DNA of 45,256 nucleotides from positions 1 to 45,256 of IMG/VR virus record IMGVR_UViG_3300048910_000050; one strand, given 5' to 3'. The notes under the pieces are model-generated. The model searched no databases and was not told the DNA's origin. It saw nothing but the letters and a program-made list of their open reading frames with translations. Source of the DNA: a virus. The position numbers and the translations under genes were made by a program. Below are positions 2,853 through 45,256 of this stretch, piece after piece (the first letter of the stretch is position 1; every line of letters begins with the position of its first letter).

Positions 2853-3123
2853 TGGAACGGAGCGCCGCGCCCCGTATAACGCGCGGCTTGCCCTGATCTG
2901 GGGTCAGGAAATTCAGGGAGTGGAATCTCAAATGTCCCGCTGCCAGCGTCACAAGCCGCCTGACTGGCGTAACCAGTCGCCACACATGGGCCGCGATGGA
3001 TTCTAAGCGTTGCGCCCGGTGACTGGATCGGAGTAATTACCGATTCAGATCCGGGGTGGCAGGAAATGATCAGCCTGCCGAGAAGTCCCAGCGCCTACTC
3101 GGTTCGACTCCGAGGCGGTCCAT

Positions 3124-3151
3124 GTGTGGTGAATGCGCAGGCTGATGCGCA
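3124..3151 (+). repeat. 28-nt element gtgtggtgaatgcgcaggctgatgcgca; exact inverted copy at 37000-37027
   Basis: Read directly. Contains TGCGCA-N6-TGCGCA. Both copies are in the sense orientation of the local operon. Confidence 0.9.
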
Positions 3152-3235
3152 AGCAGTTGAAGTGGCGAGGGGCGAGTAGGAGGCATCCGAAATAAGCCCG
3201 GCTTCGCCGACTAGCGCGGACCACTTAGCGACCGC

Positions 3236-3267
3236 AAGCCCGAGATCAGCGCGGGCCGCCACAAGCA
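3236..3267 (+). repeat. Second collinear similarity block (27/32 nt ungapped) with 36920-36951 (reverse complement)
   Basis: aagcccgagatcagcgcgggccgccacaagca versus aagccggagatcagcaccggccaccacaacca, aligned by hand. Confidence 0.6.
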
Positions 3268-3357
3268 AGCCTGAGTGCTCACAGGCCCATGCGGGACATG
3301 GTGAAAGCCCGACCGAACAACAACCGCCGGCGACGCCGGCCATATAGGAGCAGCACG

Positions 3358-3831
3358 ATGGAAGCGAAGCACACGCCGACGCCATGGCGCGTTGTCAACA
3401 GCACCCTGATCAAAGACGAGCTCATGCCGTTCGACCGCGACGAAGGAGAGACAGCGCTTATCGCCACTGCTGGCGGCCACACGACCGCACGCGCCGAGGC
3501 CAACGCCGCCTTTATCGTCCGCGCCTGCAATGCGCACGACAAGCTGATCGAGGCGCTGGAACTGGCGGAAAGCGTGATGTCGTTCAGCCGTGGTGACTCG
3601 TACGAGCGGGAGTGCACGCAAGGCGATTACAACCGGTTCCAGAGCATCTATCGTGATTTCTTCCCAGCGCAGGATACGGGACCGTCGTTCGCCGATGTCA
3701 ACCGTCTGCCTTGGGGCGCCGAAAAGCGTGCGCCTTGCCCGCATTGCGGCAAGAAGTACGGCGTCGTTACCGGCCTGAAGGCCCACATCAAGGCAAAGCA
3801 TTCCGAACTCGTCACCGGGAGCGCCGCATGA
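3358..3831 (+). CDS. Ead/Ea22-like protein (HTPTPW motif) with a C-terminal classical C2H2 zinc finger
   Basis: ATG 3358 follows AGGAG. MEAKHTPTPWRV is at the N-terminus. CPHCGKKYGVVTGLKAHIKAKH fits C-X2-C-X3-Y-X5-L-X2-H-X4-H. Confidence 0.75.
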   Translation: MEAKHTPTPWRVVNSTLIKDELMPFDRDEGETALIATAGGHTTARAEANAAFIVRACNAHDKLIEALELAESVMSFSRGDSYERECTQGDYNRFQSIYRDFFPAQDTGPSFADVNRLPWGAEKRAPCPHCGKKYGVVTGLKAHIKAKHSELVTGSAA

Positions 3832-10522: not shown

Positions 10523-11737
10523 TCATGCGCTGCGGAGAGGCACCACATTGGCGCCGATCCGTAGCTGATCCAGATAGTCTGCCCAGCGCTGCATCATCTC
10601 GCGGCGCGCGGGTAGGTGAGCGGTCCTGTTATAGGCCCGACCGTTCACATCCTTGACCGTATGTGCGAGTTGATGCTCGATCAGGTCGACCCGCTCCCCC
10701 AGCACTTCATCCATGATCGTGCGCGCCATGGCTCGGAAGCCGTGGCCCACCATCGTGTTGCTGTCGTATCCCATGCTTCGAAGGGCCATGTTGATCGTAT
10801 TTTCGCTCATCGAGCGACCTGGCTTGAGGCTAGCGAACACATAGCGACCATTGCCGGTGATTGGCTTCAGCCCGCGAAGTATCTCGACAGCCTGGCGCGC
10901 GAGCGGAACGATGTGATCATTCTCCATCTTCATTTTCCCGGCTGGGATACGCCATTCAGCGGCGTCCAGATCGATATCGGCCCATTCTGCCCCTCGTATC
11001 ATATGAGGTCGCTGAAACACTAAAGGCATGAACTTCAAGGCGGCACAGATGACGGCTTGCCCTTCATAGGCATAGATGGCGCGAAGCAAAGCTCCGACTT
11101 TCGCAGGCTCGGTGATCGCCGCAAAATGCCGCTCAACTGGTCTTTCCAATGCATCGGCAATACCTATTGTGGGGTCACGATCAACCAGTTCTGCTACCAT
11201 TGCCATGCGGAACACCTTGCCGATGTAGCCGAGCACCCTATGCATCGAATCCAAGGATCCGCGCGCCTGTATGCGCTTCATGGTCTCCAAGATATCGGAA
11301 GGGCGAATGCTGTTGATAGGGCGACTGCCTAGGTATGGAATCACGTCCCGCTCGAACCAGTTGACGAGACGCCGCTGTGTTTCCGAACCCCGCTGACTGG
11401 CCGTAGTCTGGATCCAGTCTCGCGCGACGGATTCGAAGAGTGTCCCTGCGGCTCTCTGCGCCTCTTTCGCTGCATCCTGCTTCGCGGCGCTTGGATCAAT
11501 GCCAACGGCCAATTGCTCACGCGCCGCATCCCGGCTCTTACGTGCAACAGAAAGCGATACGGCAGGGTACACGCCAAGGGCCAAAGTCTTCTGCTTGCCC
11601 AGATATCGGTAGTTGAGGCGCCAGTATTTGCCGGCCGCTTTGACCAGCAAATAAAGGCCTCCTCCATCGGAATGTTTGTCGCCGGCGCCTGCCCCGCTGT
11701 ATTTGACCTGGCGCACAAAAGTGTCTGTCAATGGCAT
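10523..11737 (-). CDS. int: Tyrosine integrase, P4-like (DUF4102 N-terminal domain)
   Basis: N-terminus LTDTFVRQVKYSG...GGLYLLVKAAGKYWRLNYRYLGKQKTLALGVYP. C-terminal HGFRAMARTIM...LAHTV...AYNRTAHL catalytic pattern. Confidence 0.95.
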   Translation of the reverse strand: MPLTDTFVRQVKYSGAGAGDKHSDGGGLYLLVKAAGKYWRLNYRYLGKQKTLALGVYPAVSLSVARKSRDAAREQLAVGIDPSAAKQDAAKEAQRAAGTLFESVARDWIQTTASQRGSETQRRLVNWFERDVIPYLGSRPINSIRPSDILETMKRIQARGSLDSMHRVLGYIGKVFRMAMVAELVDRDPTIGIADALERPVERHFAAITEPAKVGALLRAIYAYEGQAVICAALKFMPLVFQRPHMIRGAEWADIDLDAAEWRIPAGKMKMENDHIVPLARQAVEILRGLKPITGNGRYVFASLKPGRSMSENTINMALRSMGYDSNTMVGHGFRAMARTIMDEVLGERVDLIEHQLAHTVKDVNGRAYNRTAHLPARREMMQRWADYLDQLRIGANVVPLRSA

Positions 11738-19090: not shown

Positions 19091-19837
19091 CTATGCTGCT
19101 TCGTTCTGCTTCAGAAGCGGGAGTACACCTGCTGCCCACTTGATCTGCTGGATCGGCACGCCGCTACCGTGCTTCTTGCCGGTGTCGTAAATCTTCGCGA
19201 ACTCTCGGCCGGCATCCTGCACTTCCCACACCTCGCCGCGCTTGACCTGAAATCCAGCCTCGGCAAGCAGCGTGTTCACCTTGCGCCCACTGAGCTTGAT
19301 CTGCTCGCCCAACTCCGTCGGCGTGAAGAACTGTGTCTGCTCCGACTGCTCAAGGTGCGTCTGGCCGAGCAACGACAACAGATTCGTGCCCGTAATGTGC
19401 CTCACCGCCTGATTCGCGCTGATCGCCGCCGCGTTCTTGTCCAGGCCGATCAGCTTGGCCAAGCCGAACAGCGCCTTGAACTCCTTGACAGGCTCCAGCG
19501 TCGACGGTGCTTTTGTAGCCGGACGTTCCTTCGCTTGCCGCTCGCACTCGATGAAGTACTGGCGCGCTTGCTTGCCCTTGTCGGTGCGCTCGACCATCGC
19601 CAACTCTTTCGCCATGTCGAGACTGATGTGGTAATCGATTTGGCTGACTCGACCGTTCATAAATTTATGAACGGTGAAGTCTTCACCTTCGATGAACCCA
19701 TACTGGTCGATTCTGGCTTTGATCCAGTCTGCGAATTGCTGCCGGCTTTCCAGAAACGCATGCAGTTCACGTGCATTGACAGTCTCAACAGCTGCCGCCC
19801 CTAGGTTGCGTTGCTCGATATTGATCAGGCTGCTCAT
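19091..19837 (-). CDS. ant: Antirepressor (AntA-type N-terminal domain plus KilA-C-type C-terminal domain)
   Basis: [35 protein letters not shown]...[29 protein letters not shown] is the Ant/KilAC pattern. Confidence 0.85.
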
Positions 19838-20354: not shown

Positions 20355-20804
20355 ATGGCAACAGCATCTGATATCGGCGCACGCATTCAAACCTGTCGGG
20401 CTCGACTTCGTTTTTCACAGCAAGAGATGGCTGACTTAGTTGGGATTGCGCCGTCCCAGTTTCATAGGTATGAGGTCGGACGGACTAAACCTCGCCCAGC
20501 GATGGCCGATCGCATTGCCGATGCTCTCGGCGTCTCCACGTCATGGCTACTTACCGGCGAAGGCAACATGGAGCGCTCCAAGAAGGATGATCTGGGAACG
20601 CGTGATAAGCCAGGCTTTCACATCATCAGCGTCGAGTTCACCCCCAGCGAAGCCAAGGCATTTAGGCGCCAAGCCACAGCACGAGGAATGACGCCGGAAC
20701 AGTTCATGAAATTTCTCATGTATCAACAGTTCGAAAAGAACAACTTGCTTGATGCTGATAGCAAAGTCTCAAAAAACATCATCTCTCCAAAGGACGACGA
20801 ATGA
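20355..20804 (+). CDS. XRE-type HTH regulator with a C-terminal RHH-like domain (functional Mnt analogue)
   Basis: N-terminus FSQQEMADLVGIAPSQFHRYEVGRTKP. C-terminus FHIISVEFTPSEAKAFRRQATARGMTPEQFMKFLM. Divergent from the Arc-like gene. Confidence 0.75.
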   Translation: MATASDIGARIQTCRARLRFSQQEMADLVGIAPSQFHRYEVGRTKPRPAMADRIADALGVSTSWLLTGEGNMERSKKDDLGTRDKPGFHIISVEFTPSEAKAFRRQATARGMTPEQFMKFLMYQQFEKNNLLDADSKVSKNIISPKDDE

Positions 20805-35070: not shown

Positions 35071-36401
35071 CAGTAGCCGCCAATTGCTGATCTTCCGGTG
35101 TAGTCCGGATCCTCTTCTTCGTCATCGCCCCAAGCCTGCGGCTCCTCATACGCCACGCACATCAGGCCAAACGAGTCGGCGCCATGGCTTGACCAATCGT
35201 GTTCAGGCCCAAGGCCAATGCCGCGTATCTCGTCGCGCTTCTCGTGGTAGAAGCCCAGCGCCTCACGGCCTGCTTCAGTCGTCTCGGCGTTGAACCACAT
35301 GGCCGGGAACAGCCGGCGTGCAGCCTCAATACGCGCCTTTGCCGCGCCTTTGCCCTGATTCGGCACGACGGTGACGGTGTAGCCGGCAGACTTCAGCGCA
35401 GACTCATACGACACGTCGAATACCTTGTCTTGCGTCGATCCATCGTGCGGCAGCCAGATTTGCGTGCGCTTTGGGCTGTATCCGCGCTCTCGCATCCACT
35501 CAAGGTGCGTGCCAAGCGGCTGGCCGACTGCCTCGTAGTAGTCAAGTACGCGGATTTCCTTGCCGATGAACTGCGTCACCCACATCGTGAATGCGTCCGC
35601 TCTGGCGCCAGTGCCGCCGATGTCGACGAACACACGCAACGTCATGAGCGGGTCAGCAGCCACGCGCCCTATGCGGCCTTGAGTCTTGGCCATGGTCAGG
35701 CTGGCAGCGTAATACGCGCCCTCGATGACCGTCGCATAGCCGCCTTCCCAGATGTGGTCGTACTGGTCCGGGCGCTCGCGTAGATCGCGTTGCCGATCTC
35801 GCTCCATCTTGGCCGGGAATTTCTCGTTGTCGCGCCAGTTCAGTTCGACGACCTTGATAAGCGGGTCATCCGAGTTACGGAATCGCTTCTCGACCGCAGC
35901 CGTCTTGCGCTTCGGGTTCCACGTCACCCACAACTCAGCATTCCAGTCGCCGCCTTCCTCGCGCAGCGTCGGAATCAGCGTGGTGAACGCTTCGTCTGTG
36001 ACCGGCTCAGCCTCATCCACCCAGCAGATCAGGATGCGACCCTTCGACTTGATGCTGGCAATATTGCGATCCAGGCCGGCAAACGCGAACCAGATCCGAC
36101 CATCACGCGAGCGGATGAACTTCTCACCAACCTCGTAATACGCTTCCAGGAACGGTTCCTCCTCGATCGCGCGCTTGCATTCCTCAAGGCTGGAGTCTTC
36201 CAGCGAGTTCATGAATTGGCGAGCGCACAGCAGCTGGCCAGTGACACCACCCATGCCGTAGATATAGCCACGCAGGGCGATCATCTTGGCGAACGAGCGA
36301 GTTTTGCCGGAGCCCCGGCCGCCGTATGAGCCGCGAACGTCCGCCTCGCCCTCGAAGATCGGGATCAGCTTCTCGGGGATTTCAATCCTTGCGGTCGTCA
36401 T
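35070..36401 (-). CDS. terL: Terminase large subunit
   Basis: Walker A GGRGSGKTRS, Walker B ILICWVDEAE, nuclease-half pattern, 443 aa. Confidence 0.9.
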   Translation of the reverse strand: MTTARIEIPEKLIPIFEGEADVRGSYGGRGSGKTRSFAKMIALRGYIYGMGGVTGQLLCARQFMNSLEDSSLEECKRAIEEEPFLEAYYEVGEKFIRSRDGRIWFAFAGLDRNIASIKSKGRILICWVDEAEPVTDEAFTTLIPTLREEGGDWNAELWVTWNPKRKTAAVEKRFRNSDDPLIKVVELNWRDNEKFPAKMERDRQRDLRERPDQYDHIWEGGYATVIEGAYYAASLTMAKTQGRIGRVAADPLMTLRVFVDIGGTGARADAFTMWVTQFIGKEIRVLDYYEAVGQPLGTHLEWMRERGYSPKRTQIWLPHDGSTQDKVFDVSYESALKSAGYTVTVVPNQGKGAAKARIEAARRLFPAMWFNAETTEAGREALGFYHEKRDEIRGIGLGPEHDWSSHGADSFGLMCVAYEEPQAWGDDEEEDPDYTGRSAIGGY

Positions 36402-36838
36402 TTCCTGAGCGGGGCCAACTCAACGCGGGTGACAGTTTGGACTGGGCCACCATTGGGGCCGGTATGCTCCTGCGTCACCCTGTCGCGCCATTCTTCCTTG
36501 CGGCGGTTCTTCAGCCAGAAGATGGCCGCCGTGGTGTCGGGCGGGTAGTGCTTGACGATTGGGGTCTCAACGATCCTGCCTTCAACGACGCGGATATCGA
36601 TGTCGTCATGCACATACCCGACGGCGCGCGCAAACAGGCTGCGCTCCACGCGGTCATCCGCTTCGTCCTTACCGCTTTTTAAGGACTGTAAAAACTCGTC
36701 GCTTTCAAGCTTCCAGTTGTTTAACGTTTTCTCCGTAACCTCGAAGAAGTCAGCCAATTCCCGATCTGTCGCCCCGAGCTTGCACAGCTTTCGTGCCTGC
36801 TCGATGTATTCCTGCTTGAACTTCGATGGGCGGGCCAT
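36398..36838 (-). CDS. terS: Terminase small subunit
   Basis: MARPSKFKQEYIEQARKLCKLGATDRELADFFEVTEKTLNNWK HTH, and WLKNRRKEEWRD. ATGA-coupled to terL. Confidence 0.8.
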   Translation of the reverse strand: MARPSKFKQEYIEQARKLCKLGATDRELADFFEVTEKTLNNWKLESDEFLQSLKSGKDEADDRVERSLFARAVGYVHDDIDIRVVEGRIVETPIVKHYPPDTTAAIFWLKNRRKEEWRDRVTQEHTGPNGGPVQTVTRVELAPLRK

Positions 36839-36849
36839 AGTGATCGGTC

Positions 36850-36882
36850 AAAAAAAATGGCCCGGCGTGTGAGGCCGGGCCT
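36850..36882 (-). terminator. Strong intrinsic terminator 11 nt upstream of terS
   Basis: Minus-strand reading is ggcccggc-ctcacac-gccgggcc followed by a run of 9 T. Confidence 0.75.
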
Positions 36883-36919
36883 GAGTTCCCTTTCGGGCGG
36901 AGACAACTGACGAGGTAAC

Positions 36920-36951
36920 TGGTTGTGGTGGCCGGTGCTGATCTCCGGCTT
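36920..36951 (-). repeat. Partner of block 3236-3267 (27/32)
   Basis: Hand alignment of the reverse complement. Confidence 0.6.
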
Positions 36952-36999
36952 CATGTGCGTACTGTCCGCTAAGACGTAGTCGCTCTCGTAGGCTCTCGC

Positions 37000-37027
37000 T
37001 GCGCATCAGCCTGCGCATTCACCACAC
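37000..37027 (-). repeat. Exact inverted copy of the 28-nt element at 3124-3151
   Basis: The plus strand reads tgcgcatcagcctgcgcattcaccacac. Confidence 0.9.
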
Positions 37028-37298
37028 GTCGACGCACTGTCTCTCAAGTCCCATGCGGGTACGGCGAGGCAATGACCGTCGATGTGTGGCGCCTCGTTTC
37101 GTGAGGCATCCGGCATGAGCGTCCTCATGCACCAACTTCGGATGAATGCGGCCAATTCCGCACCATTACCGAAACCGTAAACGACAAAGCCCCGCGTCAT
37201 TGCTGATCGCAGGGCTTCGGATTCTTCAGGCGGCCGAAAGCTCCCGCATGGGAGCAATCGACACGTCGGAATGACGGAAATTAGTTGTTGCTTGGAAT

Positions 37299-37589
37299 TT
37301 ACAGCTGAGTTTGCTTAGAGTCAAGCTGTTTTGTATCGTCGGCAACCTCGGCTGCAAACACCAGCAATTCCTCAAGTGTCGGTGCCGCTATCGCATAGAA
37401 CCCAACGGGCGTGTCCGGATACCATTGTAGCGTCCAGATGGAATCGGAATCTATGGCCGCTTGTTTGCTGGCCTCATTCTTCCAGTTGTAGTGATCGTTG
37501 TTATCGATCCATCCCGCCGGGGCTTCGTAATAGTCCCGGTGCTGGTTGTGCTGGAGGTAGAGGCCGCATTTGTGCTCGGGGAGTTTCAT
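37299..37589 (-). CDS. Hypothetical protein (96 aa)
   Basis: ATGA-coupled to the Q-like gene; last gene before the late leader. Confidence 0.6.
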   Translation of the reverse strand: MKLPEHKCGLYLQHNQHRDYYEAPAGWIDNNDHYNWKNEASKQAAIDSDSIWTLQWYPDTPVGFYAIAAPTLEELLVFAAEVADDTKQLDSKQTQL

Positions 37590-37969
37590 ACACATGCCTC
37601 CTCGTTCTTTTCGACCACCGATTCTATCGCAGCCTGCGCCCCCTTTAGCACCGCGGCAAAGTGTTCCCGCGATACCCGCACCCGAGCGTGGCGGCAGATG
37701 ATTTGCCAGCGCATGCCCTCGACGTAGTGATGCCTGAGCACGTCACGCACAGGCTTGAGCAGCTTGCGCATGGAGCGCTCCAGGTGCTGGGCATCGTCGA
37801 TGTCGATCCTGTCGATGATGTCGTGGCCGCTCCACACGTTGCCGAGCGCGGCCTCGCGCATGTTGGCGCAGATGATCCCGGTGATGCATGAGCCTCGATT
37901 GCGTTCCATGGAGCGGAGCCAGCGGGACCAGTTGATCAGGCGGCTGTCGATGTCGTTGTATGCGGTCAA
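37586..37969 (-). CDS. Candidate late-gene regulator (Q-type antiterminator-like)
   Basis: It sits after NinG and before the late leader and terminator, as in lambdoid phages. The RLINWSRWLRS...LRHHYVEG pattern is reminiscent of Q-family proteins. The start is uncertain (TTG 37969 overlaps the upstream TGA). Confidence 0.4.
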   Translation of the reverse strand: MTAYNDIDSRLINWSRWLRSMERNRGSCITGIICANMREAALGNVWSGHDIIDRIDIDDAQHLERSMRKLLKPVRDVLRHHYVEGMRWQIICRHARVRVSREHFAAVLKGAQAAIESVVEKNEEACV

Positions 37970-38106
37970 GGCGTCTCCTCGGTGGTCTGCTCTTTCATCT
38001 TTTTTGCGCCTCGATCGAGAAGCACAGCCAGCCAGACAGCACATGCGAAGCCAGCGACGAAGGAAAGGGCGATGGAGACGGCGAAGTGGATATCGGACTC
38101 GGTCAT
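37966..38106 (-). CDS. Small membrane protein (46 aa); below the track threshold
   Basis: ATGA-coupled at 38106; MTESDIHFAVSIALSFVAGFACAVWLAVLLDRGAKKMKEQTTEETP. Confidence 0.4.
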   Translation of the reverse strand: MTESDIHFAVSIALSFVAGFACAVWLAVLLDRGAKKMKEQTTEETP

Positions 38107-45091: not shown

Positions 45092-45256
45092 TTAAAGATG
45101 GCTCCGGCCGTTTCTTGCGCCACATGCTCGGCTAGCCATGCGACCTGGGCCCGGACATTTACGGGATTCCTTTGGGCTCGCTGGAGGCTTAGCATGGGTA
45201 CGTGCCGCCTTGTGCATCAGATCGCGAAGGAACGGGCTTCTACCCAAACCTCCCCG
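45092..45256 (-). CDS. Same RHH gene, C-terminal part (stop TAA at 45094..45092); 45130-45256 duplicates 1-127
   Basis: The reading frame continues from base 1 across the circular junction. Confidence 0.5.
   Translation of the reverse strand, partial: RGGLGRSPFLRDLMHKAARTHAKPPASPKESRKCPGPGRMASRACGARNGRSHL
45130..45256. repeat. Second copy of the 127-nt terminal overlap
   Basis: Identical to bases 1-127. Confidence 0.95.

Follow-up and report, generated by a model that had tools for sequence, protein, structure and literature searches.

The virus record IMGVR_UViG_3300048910_000050 carries two copies of a structured RNA element, copy A on the plus strand and copy B on the minus strand. We analyzed positions 1 to 45,256 of this record, its whole 45,256 nucleotides (nt), hereafter called the window. 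A preliminary description had taken the sequence shared by the two copies for a cis-regulatory module that placed the genes from 3358 onward and the late operon under common control. Our analysis points elsewhere, in that each copy is probably an autonomous structured-RNA gene belonging to a widespread family and not a regulatory module specific to this phage. The family is a mobile, moron-like cassette found in available transcribed slots, namely late leaders, the region downstream of cI, N-gene leaders and tRNA arrays. We are far less confident about any specific downstream mechanism than about this reading of the copies as RNA genes.

Two repeat blocks are the halves of one structured RNA

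The 28-mer GTGTGGTGAATGCGCAGGCTGATGCGCA was confirmed to occur exactly at 3124-3151 (+) and 37000-37027 (-) and nowhere else in the window, and a repeat search extended the pair to 34 nt at 94% identity. In 100 shuffles no chance match was expected even when three mismatches were allowed, which bears out the claim that the repeat is beyond chance. The second block, AAGCCCGAGATCAGCGCGGGCCGCCACAA (3236-3264, +) versus AAGCCGGAGATCAGCACCGGCCACCACAA (36951-36923, -), is also real, with 27 of 32 positions matching over the 32 nt originally given and none expected by chance. The spacings of 85 nt (copy A) and 49 nt (copy B) between the blocks were given correctly, and both copies do read in the sense direction of their flanking genes. 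The region in common is larger than had been described, however, since the repeat search also returned a third collinear block (Table 1).

The two repeat blocks form the 5′ and 3′ halves of a single structured RNA. The start of the first block (UGUGGUG) pairs with the end of the second (CACCACA, or CGCCACA in copy A) to make a closing helix, P1. This is followed by the dinucleotide AA, a hairpin P2 (UGCGCA-GGCUGA-UGCGCA), a variable arm, and a hairpin P3 (GCCGG-AGAUCAGCA-CCGGC) whose 3′ strand is flush against P1. The two TGCGCA hexamers, which had been noted as able to fold into a hairpin, are the P2 stem, and this stem covaries across the family. Three of the five differences in the second block preserve the structure, through a compensatory C-G/G-C swap in P3 (GCCCG/CGGGC versus GCCGG/CCGGC) and a change from U-A to U.G in P1. 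Helices P1, P2 and P3 were all recovered by unconstrained minimum free energy (MFE) folding of either copy. Both copies have the full arrangement by which we define the family, P1 - AA - P2 (loop GGCUGA) - variable arm - P3 (loop AGAUCAGCR) - P1′.

The loops of P2 and P3 (L2 and L3) are complementary over 5-6 nt (GCUGAU/AUCAGC) and together make up the palindrome GCUGAUCAGC. The topology is tRNA-like, with P1 stacked on the 3′ hairpin as on a T-arm, a two-nt linker, P2 in the position of the D-arm, and the variable arm in place of the anticodon arm. The sequence immediately 3′ of P1 is ACCA in copy B and AGCA in copy A. The arms of the two copies had no mutual similarity by BLAST.

Helices covary and the folded molecule is the sense transcript

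All three helices covary in related phages, which the preliminary description had proposed to search. The covariation set consisted of 103 distinct scaffolds, in which double changes were present at 15 of the 17 helix pairs (5/6 in P1, 6/6 in P2 and 4/5 in P3). Changes on both sides of a pair were counted in 183 cells relative to a shuffled mean of 33.5, a value reached in none of 500 shuffles, and the signal was abolished when the partner columns were slid. In 218 of 245 core hits the 3′ module was located by sequence alone, and the strand after it complemented the local P1 at five or more of six positions. More than 50 different P1 pairs were found, for example GAUCUG/CAGAUC, GAGAGG/CCUCUC and AAGCGG/CCGCUU, and the helix is mostly 7-10 base pairs (bp) long across the family. 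When the search was anchored on the 3′ module only, P2 appeared as GCGU/ACGC, GAGC/GCUC, GCGA/UCGC, GCAC/GUGC and CCCG/CGGG, with the loop GGCUGA almost always kept among these variants.

The wobble pairs determine the strand. U.G was present at the closing pair of P2 in 38 sequences and G.U within P3 in nine, and on the opposite strand these would be A.C mismatches. Because the G.U pairs are confined to one strand, the folded molecule is the sense-strand transcript. Together with the covariation, this substantiates the earlier view that the element is non-random, folded, strand-specific and active at the RNA level.

The family is present in phages and bacterial genomes across phyla

The first distant relative was obtained by blastn with copy B, which matched an unannotated stretch of Klebsiella phage KP591P1, and exact-pattern scans followed. 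The KP591P1 stretch has the same 5′ and 3′ modules around a different middle and is located immediately before a tRNA-Ser/Arg/Met array. An exact 26-mer from the core is present in at least 118 IMG/VR contigs, and an exact 20-mer core in at least 120 GTDB species genomes. Among the matches listed, the hosts of the 20-mer include gamma-, beta- and alphaproteobacteria, Desulfocarbo, Geobacteraceae and a metagenome-assembled genome (MAG) of Pseudobdellovibrionaceae, as well as Flavobacterium, Coriobacteriia and Phycisphaerales MAGs. Matches were also obtained in 171 to 210 phage records of GenBank, among them HK620, P1 and large Klebsiella phages, and in 628 of 5,426 complete Escherichia coli genomes (about one in nine, ~12%). 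Among the matches listed, no annotated feature lies under those in E. coli.

In HK620 the member follows the annotated qut site and precedes the late terminator. Phage P1 (L122) contains two unannotated members (2515-2644 and 2944-3040) just after tRNA-Asn and tRNA-Thr, the second of them in an unannotated gap between a coding sequence for a "hypothetical protein" (2673-2846) and tciA (3363). Two or more copies that differ in P1 and in their arms are not peculiar to the window, and are also found in phage P1, L248 and L283. The 28/28 identity of the window copies is explained by a core that is invariant throughout the family, and not by co-regulation specific to this phage.

In scans with Rfam 15, nothing reached the gathering score in the window or in its two element regions, and in 16 member loci only tRNAs did. 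At E ≤ 10, the window regions gave no relevant match overlapping the element and no ribozyme family, and the sub-threshold matches downstream of copy B were to terminator-type small RNAs (sRNAs). ARAGORN with default settings called no tRNA genes in the window, and relaxed settings produced only implausible calls, so the element was rejected as a tRNA. Full-text literature searches, including searches with literal sequences, returned no description of the RNA family.

The arm is exchangeable and diverse

The 233 unique arms represent 177 BLAST-distinct types, with lengths of ~30-230 nt. Two members in N-gene leaders (L010 and L020) have identical flanks, including the gene for an N-type antiterminator, around unrelated arms of 89 and 154 nt, in an apparent case of arm swapping by recombination within the conserved handles. 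One arm type common to a Klebsiella and a Pseudomonas phage carries compensatory changes (GAUGG/CCAUC versus GGCGG/CCGCC, compared by eye), which indicates that the arms are not junk.

Another arm type (L019, L040 and L072) mimics, in the sense orientation, nt 243-282 of E. coli 16S rRNA (L429 6001-6040), a segment which we take to be helix 11. It has 85-87.5% identity over 40 nt with compensatory changes, and it is also present in six complete E. coli genomes. This was the only type to exceed the shuffled control, and the idea that arms are rRNA fragments in general was rejected. In one member (L333, 525-741), the scaffold encloses an 86-nt tRNA-Pro(cgg)-like gene called by ARAGORN, and the arms of L173 and L031 contain D-arm/T-arm segments. 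Arms as tRNA pieces in general were likewise rejected, with matches in 4 of 233 relative to 0-1 in shuffles. The window arms matched nothing elsewhere among the sequences compared here. A role as antisense guides was rejected because no significant complementarity was found between either window arm and the remainder of the window. A 9-nt match of CAGGCUGAU to what we presume to be 23S rRNA sequence was also dropped, with ~0.7 such matches expected by chance according to our own estimate.

Members occupy transcribed slots of several kinds

In order to survey genomic context, open reading frames (ORFs) within 3 kilobases (kb) of 276 members were clustered. Neighbors in the four commonest families were encoded on the same strand as the element in 48/49, 29/30, 29/29 and 23/23 cases. 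For 49 members, a cI-type (Peptidase_S24) repressor gene precedes the element in the same orientation. A further setting, also with 49 members, is the late leader, where the element is preceded by NinG or Q and followed by lysozyme or Rz, all encoded in the same orientation. An intrinsic terminator is present within 170 nt of 30/49 late-leader members versus 1/49 in the repressor context.

Thirteen of the 276 members are found ~25 nt before the gene for an N-type antiterminator (N_peptide). In these N-leader members P1 is extended to ~17 bp, and sequences resembling boxA and boxB, identified by eye, are present 60-100 nt upstream of the element as a candidate nutL. A tRNA is found no more than 300 nt away from 25 of the 276, in every case on the strand of the element, and only 61 tRNAs were present in the 2.2 megabases (Mb) examined. 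The element is packed head-to-tail with tRNAs in KP591P1 and in phage P1. A nutL/nutR-like geometry of two divergent copies in L248 was considered and rejected, as that locus is a late leader with an IS3 insertion and not an immunity region.

Enteric members (HK620, L121 2130-2510; KP591P1, L001 3700-3995; P1, L122 2437-2512) are preceded by a conserved unit closed by GGUAAGAGCA/UGCUCUUUCC, which covaries as GGUAAGGGUA/UACCCUUACC in phage P1. The 3′ strand of this upstream stem, UGCUCUUU, resembles what we take to be rrn boxA. HK620 and KP591P1 have a further unannotated block of ~170 nt in common upstream. These blocks look like additional undescribed RNA units in an array.

Relatives of the window lack the element and keep the flanking genes

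A family member is located upstream of terS in only 2 of 64 IMG/VR loci that encode a terS homologue. The closest relative of the window, L363, has a terS that is 96% identical in amino acids and a leader that is 95% identical in nucleotides. It aligns in three segments, which are the Q-like gene (90%), the promoter and first leader hairpin (37349-37186, 95%), and everything from 36906 onward, including the terminator, terS and terL (88%). L363 thus keeps the Q-like gene, the promoter, both terminator hairpins and terS, and is without cassette B, the segment consisting of copy B and its upstream hairpins. In place of window 37185-36907 it has 165 nt encoding an ORF of ~47 amino acids. This ORF (L363 2287-2430) is lysine-rich (MPLKKSPSEKAFKENVKK...). 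Its presence indicates that the slot between the two leader terminators takes either protein or RNA cargo.

The control parts of the late operon are complete in L363 without copy B, and the first leader hairpin, which is kept in this relative lacking the element, does not belong to cassette B. A more distant relative, L427, is without cassette A, and its homologues of the flanking genes are joined by coding sequence only. From L363 and L427 together, both window copies are located in insertion slots of the moron kind. The preliminary description had set out beforehand that absence of the element from relatives with the same gene order would refute a regulatory module, and this is the situation in L363 and L427. 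Coupling of the genes from 3358 onward to the late operon is accordingly not upheld, as the 28-mer is the invariant core of a widespread RNA family. The two copies have a core in common because every family member has it, and not because their operons are co-regulated.

The two loci in the window

The genomic context of copy B, with its Q-like gene, late leader, terminator and terS, had been read correctly. Copy B is located between the Q-like gene and terS (36398-36838), with NinG further upstream and terL downstream. The terminator follows 38 nt after copy B and ends 12 nt before the terS ATG at 36838. With a late-promoter-like site on one side and this terminator on the other, copy B is predicted to be the 3′ body of a leader RNA. 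The whole copy B leader is strongly structured (z = -5.3).

Table 1 Features of the two loci in the window. Strands are given where assigned; the last column gives the basis and remarks.
Feature	Position	Strand	Basis and remarks
Third collinear block	2952..2987	+	Hairpin then GCCACACAU; matches reverse complement of 37082-37117 (repeat search)
tRNA-like unit adjoining copy A	2989..3123	+	Sequence, inverted repeat, MFE
Copy A, 139 nt	3125..3263	+	Sequence, MFE, family covariation
Copy A helix P1	3125-3131/3257-3263	+	J1/2 AA 3132-3133
Copy A P2	3134-3139/3146-3151	+	Loop L2 GGCUGA 3140-3145
Copy A variable arm, 86 nt	3152-3237	+	
Copy A P3	3238-3242/3252-3256	+	Loop L3 AGAUCAGCG 3243-3251
Intrinsic terminator, 8 G-C pairs + U8	36850..36881 (stem 36881-36859)	-	Kept in L363
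Cassette B, 279 nt	36907..37185	-	Copy B + upstream hairpins; breakpoints by BLAST versus L363
Copy B, 103 nt	36924..37026	-	Sequence, MFE
Copy B helix P1	37026-37020/36930-36924	-	J1/2 AA 37019-37018
Copy B P2	37017-37012/37005-37000	-	Loop L2 37011-37006
Copy B variable arm, 50 nt	36999-36950	-	Unrelated to arm A
Copy B P3	36949-36945/36935-36931	-	Loop L3 AGAUCAGCA 36944-36936
Hairpin upstream of copy B, CCACACAUCGACG...CGUCGACGUGUGG	37020..37094	-	3′ strand overlaps 5′ strand of helix P1; pairings compete
First leader hairpin GAAGCCCUGCG..CGCGGGGCUU	37183..37218	-	Terminator-like; loop contains GAUCAGC
Late-promoter-like site TTGACT-N17-TAAATT	37296..37324	-	Downstream of Q-like gene, ~270 nt upstream of copy B; kept in L363
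Q-like gene	37586-38044		phrog_79

A GC-rich hairpin before the next start codon had been described for both copies. For copy B this stands, and the hairpin is a true intrinsic terminator, the only one to follow either copy. For copy A neither the coordinates nor the terminator character hold, as the hairpin GCCGGC-GAC-GCCGGC is located at 3326-3340 (corrected from 3323-3337), before the ATG at 3358, has no U-run on the plus strand, and scores as intrinsic-terminator-like only on the minus strand (tail GGTTGTTGTT).

The stretch from copy B to terS (36843-36923, -), which contains a UGUCUCC motif and the terminator, gave sub-threshold Rfam matches to "Betaproteobacteria toxic small RNA" (28.7 bits) and to mmgR/suhB (26.9 bits), and it is conserved in L363. 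This stretch could represent an sRNA-like 3′ module in the leader transcript, and the sub-threshold betaproteobacterial match hints at a betaproteobacterial host.

Copy A is located upstream of an Erf-like recombinase and ~2 kb downstream of a weak cI-like ORF (599-1138; phrog_4, E = 6e-6, with tblastn matches from the cI cluster), a position that matches the repressor-side context of the family. The ORF that follows it (3358-3831) matches only phrog_1273, which has no assigned function. The adjoining tRNA-like unit has a 7-bp acceptor-like helix (GGGCCGC/GCGGUCC) and a canonical-looking T-arm (CUCGG-UUCGACU-CCGAG), and was not called a tRNA by ARAGORN or Rfam. Its leader/trailer extension, CCACACAU/AUGUGUGG, overlaps the 5′ strand of copy A P1. 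A GTTCRANTC T-loop motif is also present at most 45 nt upstream of the element in 16 other family members. At both loci (37020-37094, -, and 2980-3131, +), an upstream CCACAC(AU) pairs with the GUGUGG that starts P1. This alternative pairing is conserved between the window copies and was not seen in enteric members.

The ends of the window carry an exact 127-nt direct repeat (1-127 and 45130-45256), which indicates that the contig is circular or terminally redundant. A short segment is 88% identical to an antirepressor gene of Bordetella avium phages, and a nearby helix-turn-helix-type ORF resembles the cI-like cluster (19535-19637 and 20367-20612). Megablast of window 1-25000 against GenBank phages gave this segment as the only nucleotide-level match. 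The phage otherwise appears novel and temperate, with an integrase at 10523-11737.

Proposed explanation and alternatives

We propose that in each copy the two complementary loops kiss and thereby lock a compact core, and that the RNA would be cut from, or terminated out of, the operon transcript and accumulate as a stable RNA. Its persistence would come from ends locked in P1 and from the loop-loop contact that compacts the core. Copy B may form the 3′ body of a leader RNA of ~430 nt, from the late promoter to the terminator. In lambda, PR′ is constitutive and gives a short leader transcript, and by analogy the copy B RNA could be made in lysogens too. Copy A would be made from the repressor-side operon, beside the tRNA-like unit. 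The invariant core might be recognized by a highly conserved cellular component or be self-sufficient, with the arm carrying a specific cargo. That the loops stay the same from phylum to phylum suggests that they are either recognized by a universal component of the cell or part of an activity of the RNA alone. A more specific form of this proposal, which we put forward only tentatively and think doubtful, is that the invariant handles make up a host-independent RNA expression cassette, either self-excising/ligating through its kissing-loop core or processed by a universal enzyme, that releases and stabilizes swappable decoy or mimic RNAs. The 16S rRNA helix-11 mimic and the tRNA-like modules would be examples of such cargo. 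Such a system would be modular, an RNA counterpart of gene cassettes consisting of RNA morons.

Several observations weigh against the reading of the copies as autonomous RNA genes. The existence of a discrete stable RNA is itself predicted from sequence. The 99.8% of positions paired in the covariation set is not an independent figure, since the finder demanded pairing, and a fairer picture comes from the range of pair types and from the 218 of 245 core hits recovered when the 3′ module was anchored by sequence alone. Folded in isolation, the copies have modest MFE z-scores (-1.2, and -2.2 for copy B), and in MFE folds of the whole leaders the upstream hairpin beats P1 at both window loci. 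Such competing hairpins could mean local switching in cis. The kiss between L2 and L3 is without compensatory variants in 3.3 Mb of sequence, which is explained by the near-invariance of both loops; the changes that do occur at these positions are mostly C to U and compatible with G.U pairing. The likeness to tRNA is topological only, as there is no T-loop consensus and P1 varies in length, and NCCA follows a 7-bp P1 in just 21/248 members (~8%). Finally, the neighbors are ordinary lambdoid genes, among which no consistently linked partner protein was found.

Among the alternatives, a cis-acting leader RNA is considered first, and we judge it unlikely. It would be either a put-like processive antiterminator, bound to RNA polymerase as it transcribes, or an element for processing or stability of the downstream message, for example through RNase III or RNase P cleavage at P1. 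The members are in sense orientation inside operons throughout, they are often just upstream of a terminator and then essential genes (copy B and HK620), and the ~17-bp P1 of the 13 members located ~25 nt before an N-type gene would be a plausible RNase III substrate. Loops that hardly vary between phyla would be consistent with contact to the highly conserved RNA polymerase, the upstream hairpins that compete with P1 at both window loci would fit as well, and the put RNAs of HK022 likewise occur as two copies in two operons with no protein factor (PMC9378689). However, the element is not required for read-through, given that L363 is without cassette B yet retains the Q-like gene, the promoter and both terminators. 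Members in tRNA arrays have no terminator or mRNA to regulate, and a terminator follows only 1/49 of those in the cI context. The conservation of arms with covariation between Klebsiella and Pseudomonas phages indicates that the insert itself matters, and the size and two stem-loops of put are unlike a junction with a 30-230-nt arm whose core motifs are absent from HK022. From what is generally known of lambda, the Q switch would also be defeated if an antiterminator acted constitutively between a late promoter of the lambda type and its terminator.

A new self-cleaving ribozyme, or one that cleaves and ligates, seems to us improbable. Its catalytic core would be made of the invariant loops and junction purines, and it would excise and stabilize the arm. 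A small core (~51 nt) with freely covarying helices and invariant loop and junction nucleotides, one optional arm of highly variable length, occurrence in phages from many phyla, the lack of a linked protein gene, the possibility of several copies per genome, and units placed head-to-tail with tRNAs are all features of the family, and such features are hallmarks of known small ribozymes. Against this, no Rfam 15 ribozyme matched even at E ≤ 10, and no cleavage site could be inferred.

A DNA operator, in which TGCGCA-N6-TGCGCA would be bound by a dimeric phage regulator controlling both operons, is very improbable. This had been suggested from the palindromic hexamers, which are 12 bp apart and exactly repeated in two non-coding gaps. 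The hexamers covary as an RNA stem, changing so as to stay complementary and not identical (GCGT/ACGC, GAGC/GCTC, CCCG/CGGG), and the G.U-type pairs are on one strand only. The orientation of the element follows transcription, and phages whose hosts and regulators are unrelated contain the identical sequence. A functionless recombination scar or recent intragenomic duplication is hardly credible, for although the segment is present or absent among relatives and has mosaic boundaries at the cassette edges, its arms are unrelated and its cores near-identical where a recent duplication would give the opposite, the core differences between the copies are compensatory, and the family is under purifying selection with covariation.

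If the reading as autonomous RNA genes is correct, the well-studied phages P1 and HK620 contain a structured RNA that has escaped annotation, and so do ~12% of complete E. coli genomes and prophages from several phyla. Unusually, this RNA combines a core of ~51 nt that is near-identical from Klebsiella phages to alphaproteobacterial, Geobacteraceae and Flavobacterium genomes with an arm that differs in nearly every lineage and is exchangeable between otherwise identical loci. This pattern of conservation points to a universal cellular machine or to an RNA-only activity, and if either is true, the family would provide a handle on the purpose of the non-tRNA stable RNAs beside phage tRNA genes. 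For annotation, two of the largest "non-coding gaps" of this phage would leave the list of presumed regulatory regions.

Comparison with known systems

The element resembles HK022 put (putL/putR) in that two sense copies are present in two operons of a temperate phage and give structured nascent RNAs. The put sites are ~70 nt, consist of two stem-loops, are located just downstream of PL and PR, and suppress termination in cis via the zinc-binding domain of the RNA polymerase β′ subunit with no dedicated protein (PMC9378689). The element described here differs in being a P1-closed junction of three or more arms, one of them a variable arm of 30-230 nt, and in being found also in late leaders (copy B, downstream of the Q-like gene), in tRNA arrays and in lytic-type phages. 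HK022 contains neither the core 26-mer nor the 3′ module, even at a tolerance of three mismatches. Identity with put was rejected on the absence of these core motifs and the different architecture, and a put-like action on RNA polymerase fits poorly.

A nut- or qut-like element had also been suggested and is not supported. The likeness to nut is one of position in a phage operon leader, with some members in the leader of the N gene itself. Both window copies lack a boxA (CGCUCUUA-like) as well as the boxB hairpin and its GNRA-like pentaloop, and the P2 loop is instead the 6-nt GGCUGA. In the N-leader members the boxA- and boxB-like sequences are upstream of the element, which is therefore not the nut site itself, and UGCUCUUU forms the 3′ side of a stem with covariation in phage P1. 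The qut site is a DNA site at the late promoter and the first transcribed stretch that is bound by Q, whereas the element is ~270 nt downstream of that promoter and absent in L363.

Phage tRNAs occupy the same genomic slots, are packed head-to-tail in the same way, and have the same four-arm topology with a closing helix on the 3′ hairpin. The element differs from them in that it is not called by ARAGORN or RF00005 and has no anticodon arm and no T-loop or D-loop consensus. A similar setting is known from phage T4, whose record annotates two "small, stable RNA" genes (rnaC/rnaD, the "species 1 and 2" RNAs) in the tRNA cluster. To our knowledge the function of rnaC and rnaD is still not established. 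Identity with them was rejected, as no sequence similarity was evident by eye.

YrlA RNAs are comparable in their modular build, with a terminal stem and a tRNA-like module, and the arms of L173, L031 and L333 have such modules. The YrlA genes adjoin a Ro60/Rsr gene (PMC4201824). A TROVE-like sequence was not recognized among the 22 largest neighbor clusters, eight of which were scanned against Pfam, and Y RNA gave no Rfam match in the window regions at E ≤ 10 and none at gathering score in 16 loci.

GOLLD and ROOL are likewise RNAs borne by phages and prophages whose function is obscure. They are often located beside tRNA genes, and their oligomers form via loop-loop contacts. The palindrome GCUGAUCAGC could similarly pair within or between molecules, and oligomerization of the element is pure speculation. 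The element is five to eight times smaller, has another fold and matches neither Rfam model. GOLLD and ROOL assemble into RNA-only homo-oligomers (PMC12286853). The kind of object described here is thus already known, namely a phage-borne structured RNA of obscure function beside tRNA genes, and what appears new is a scaffold family that combines an invariant core of ~51 nt with a swappable arm.

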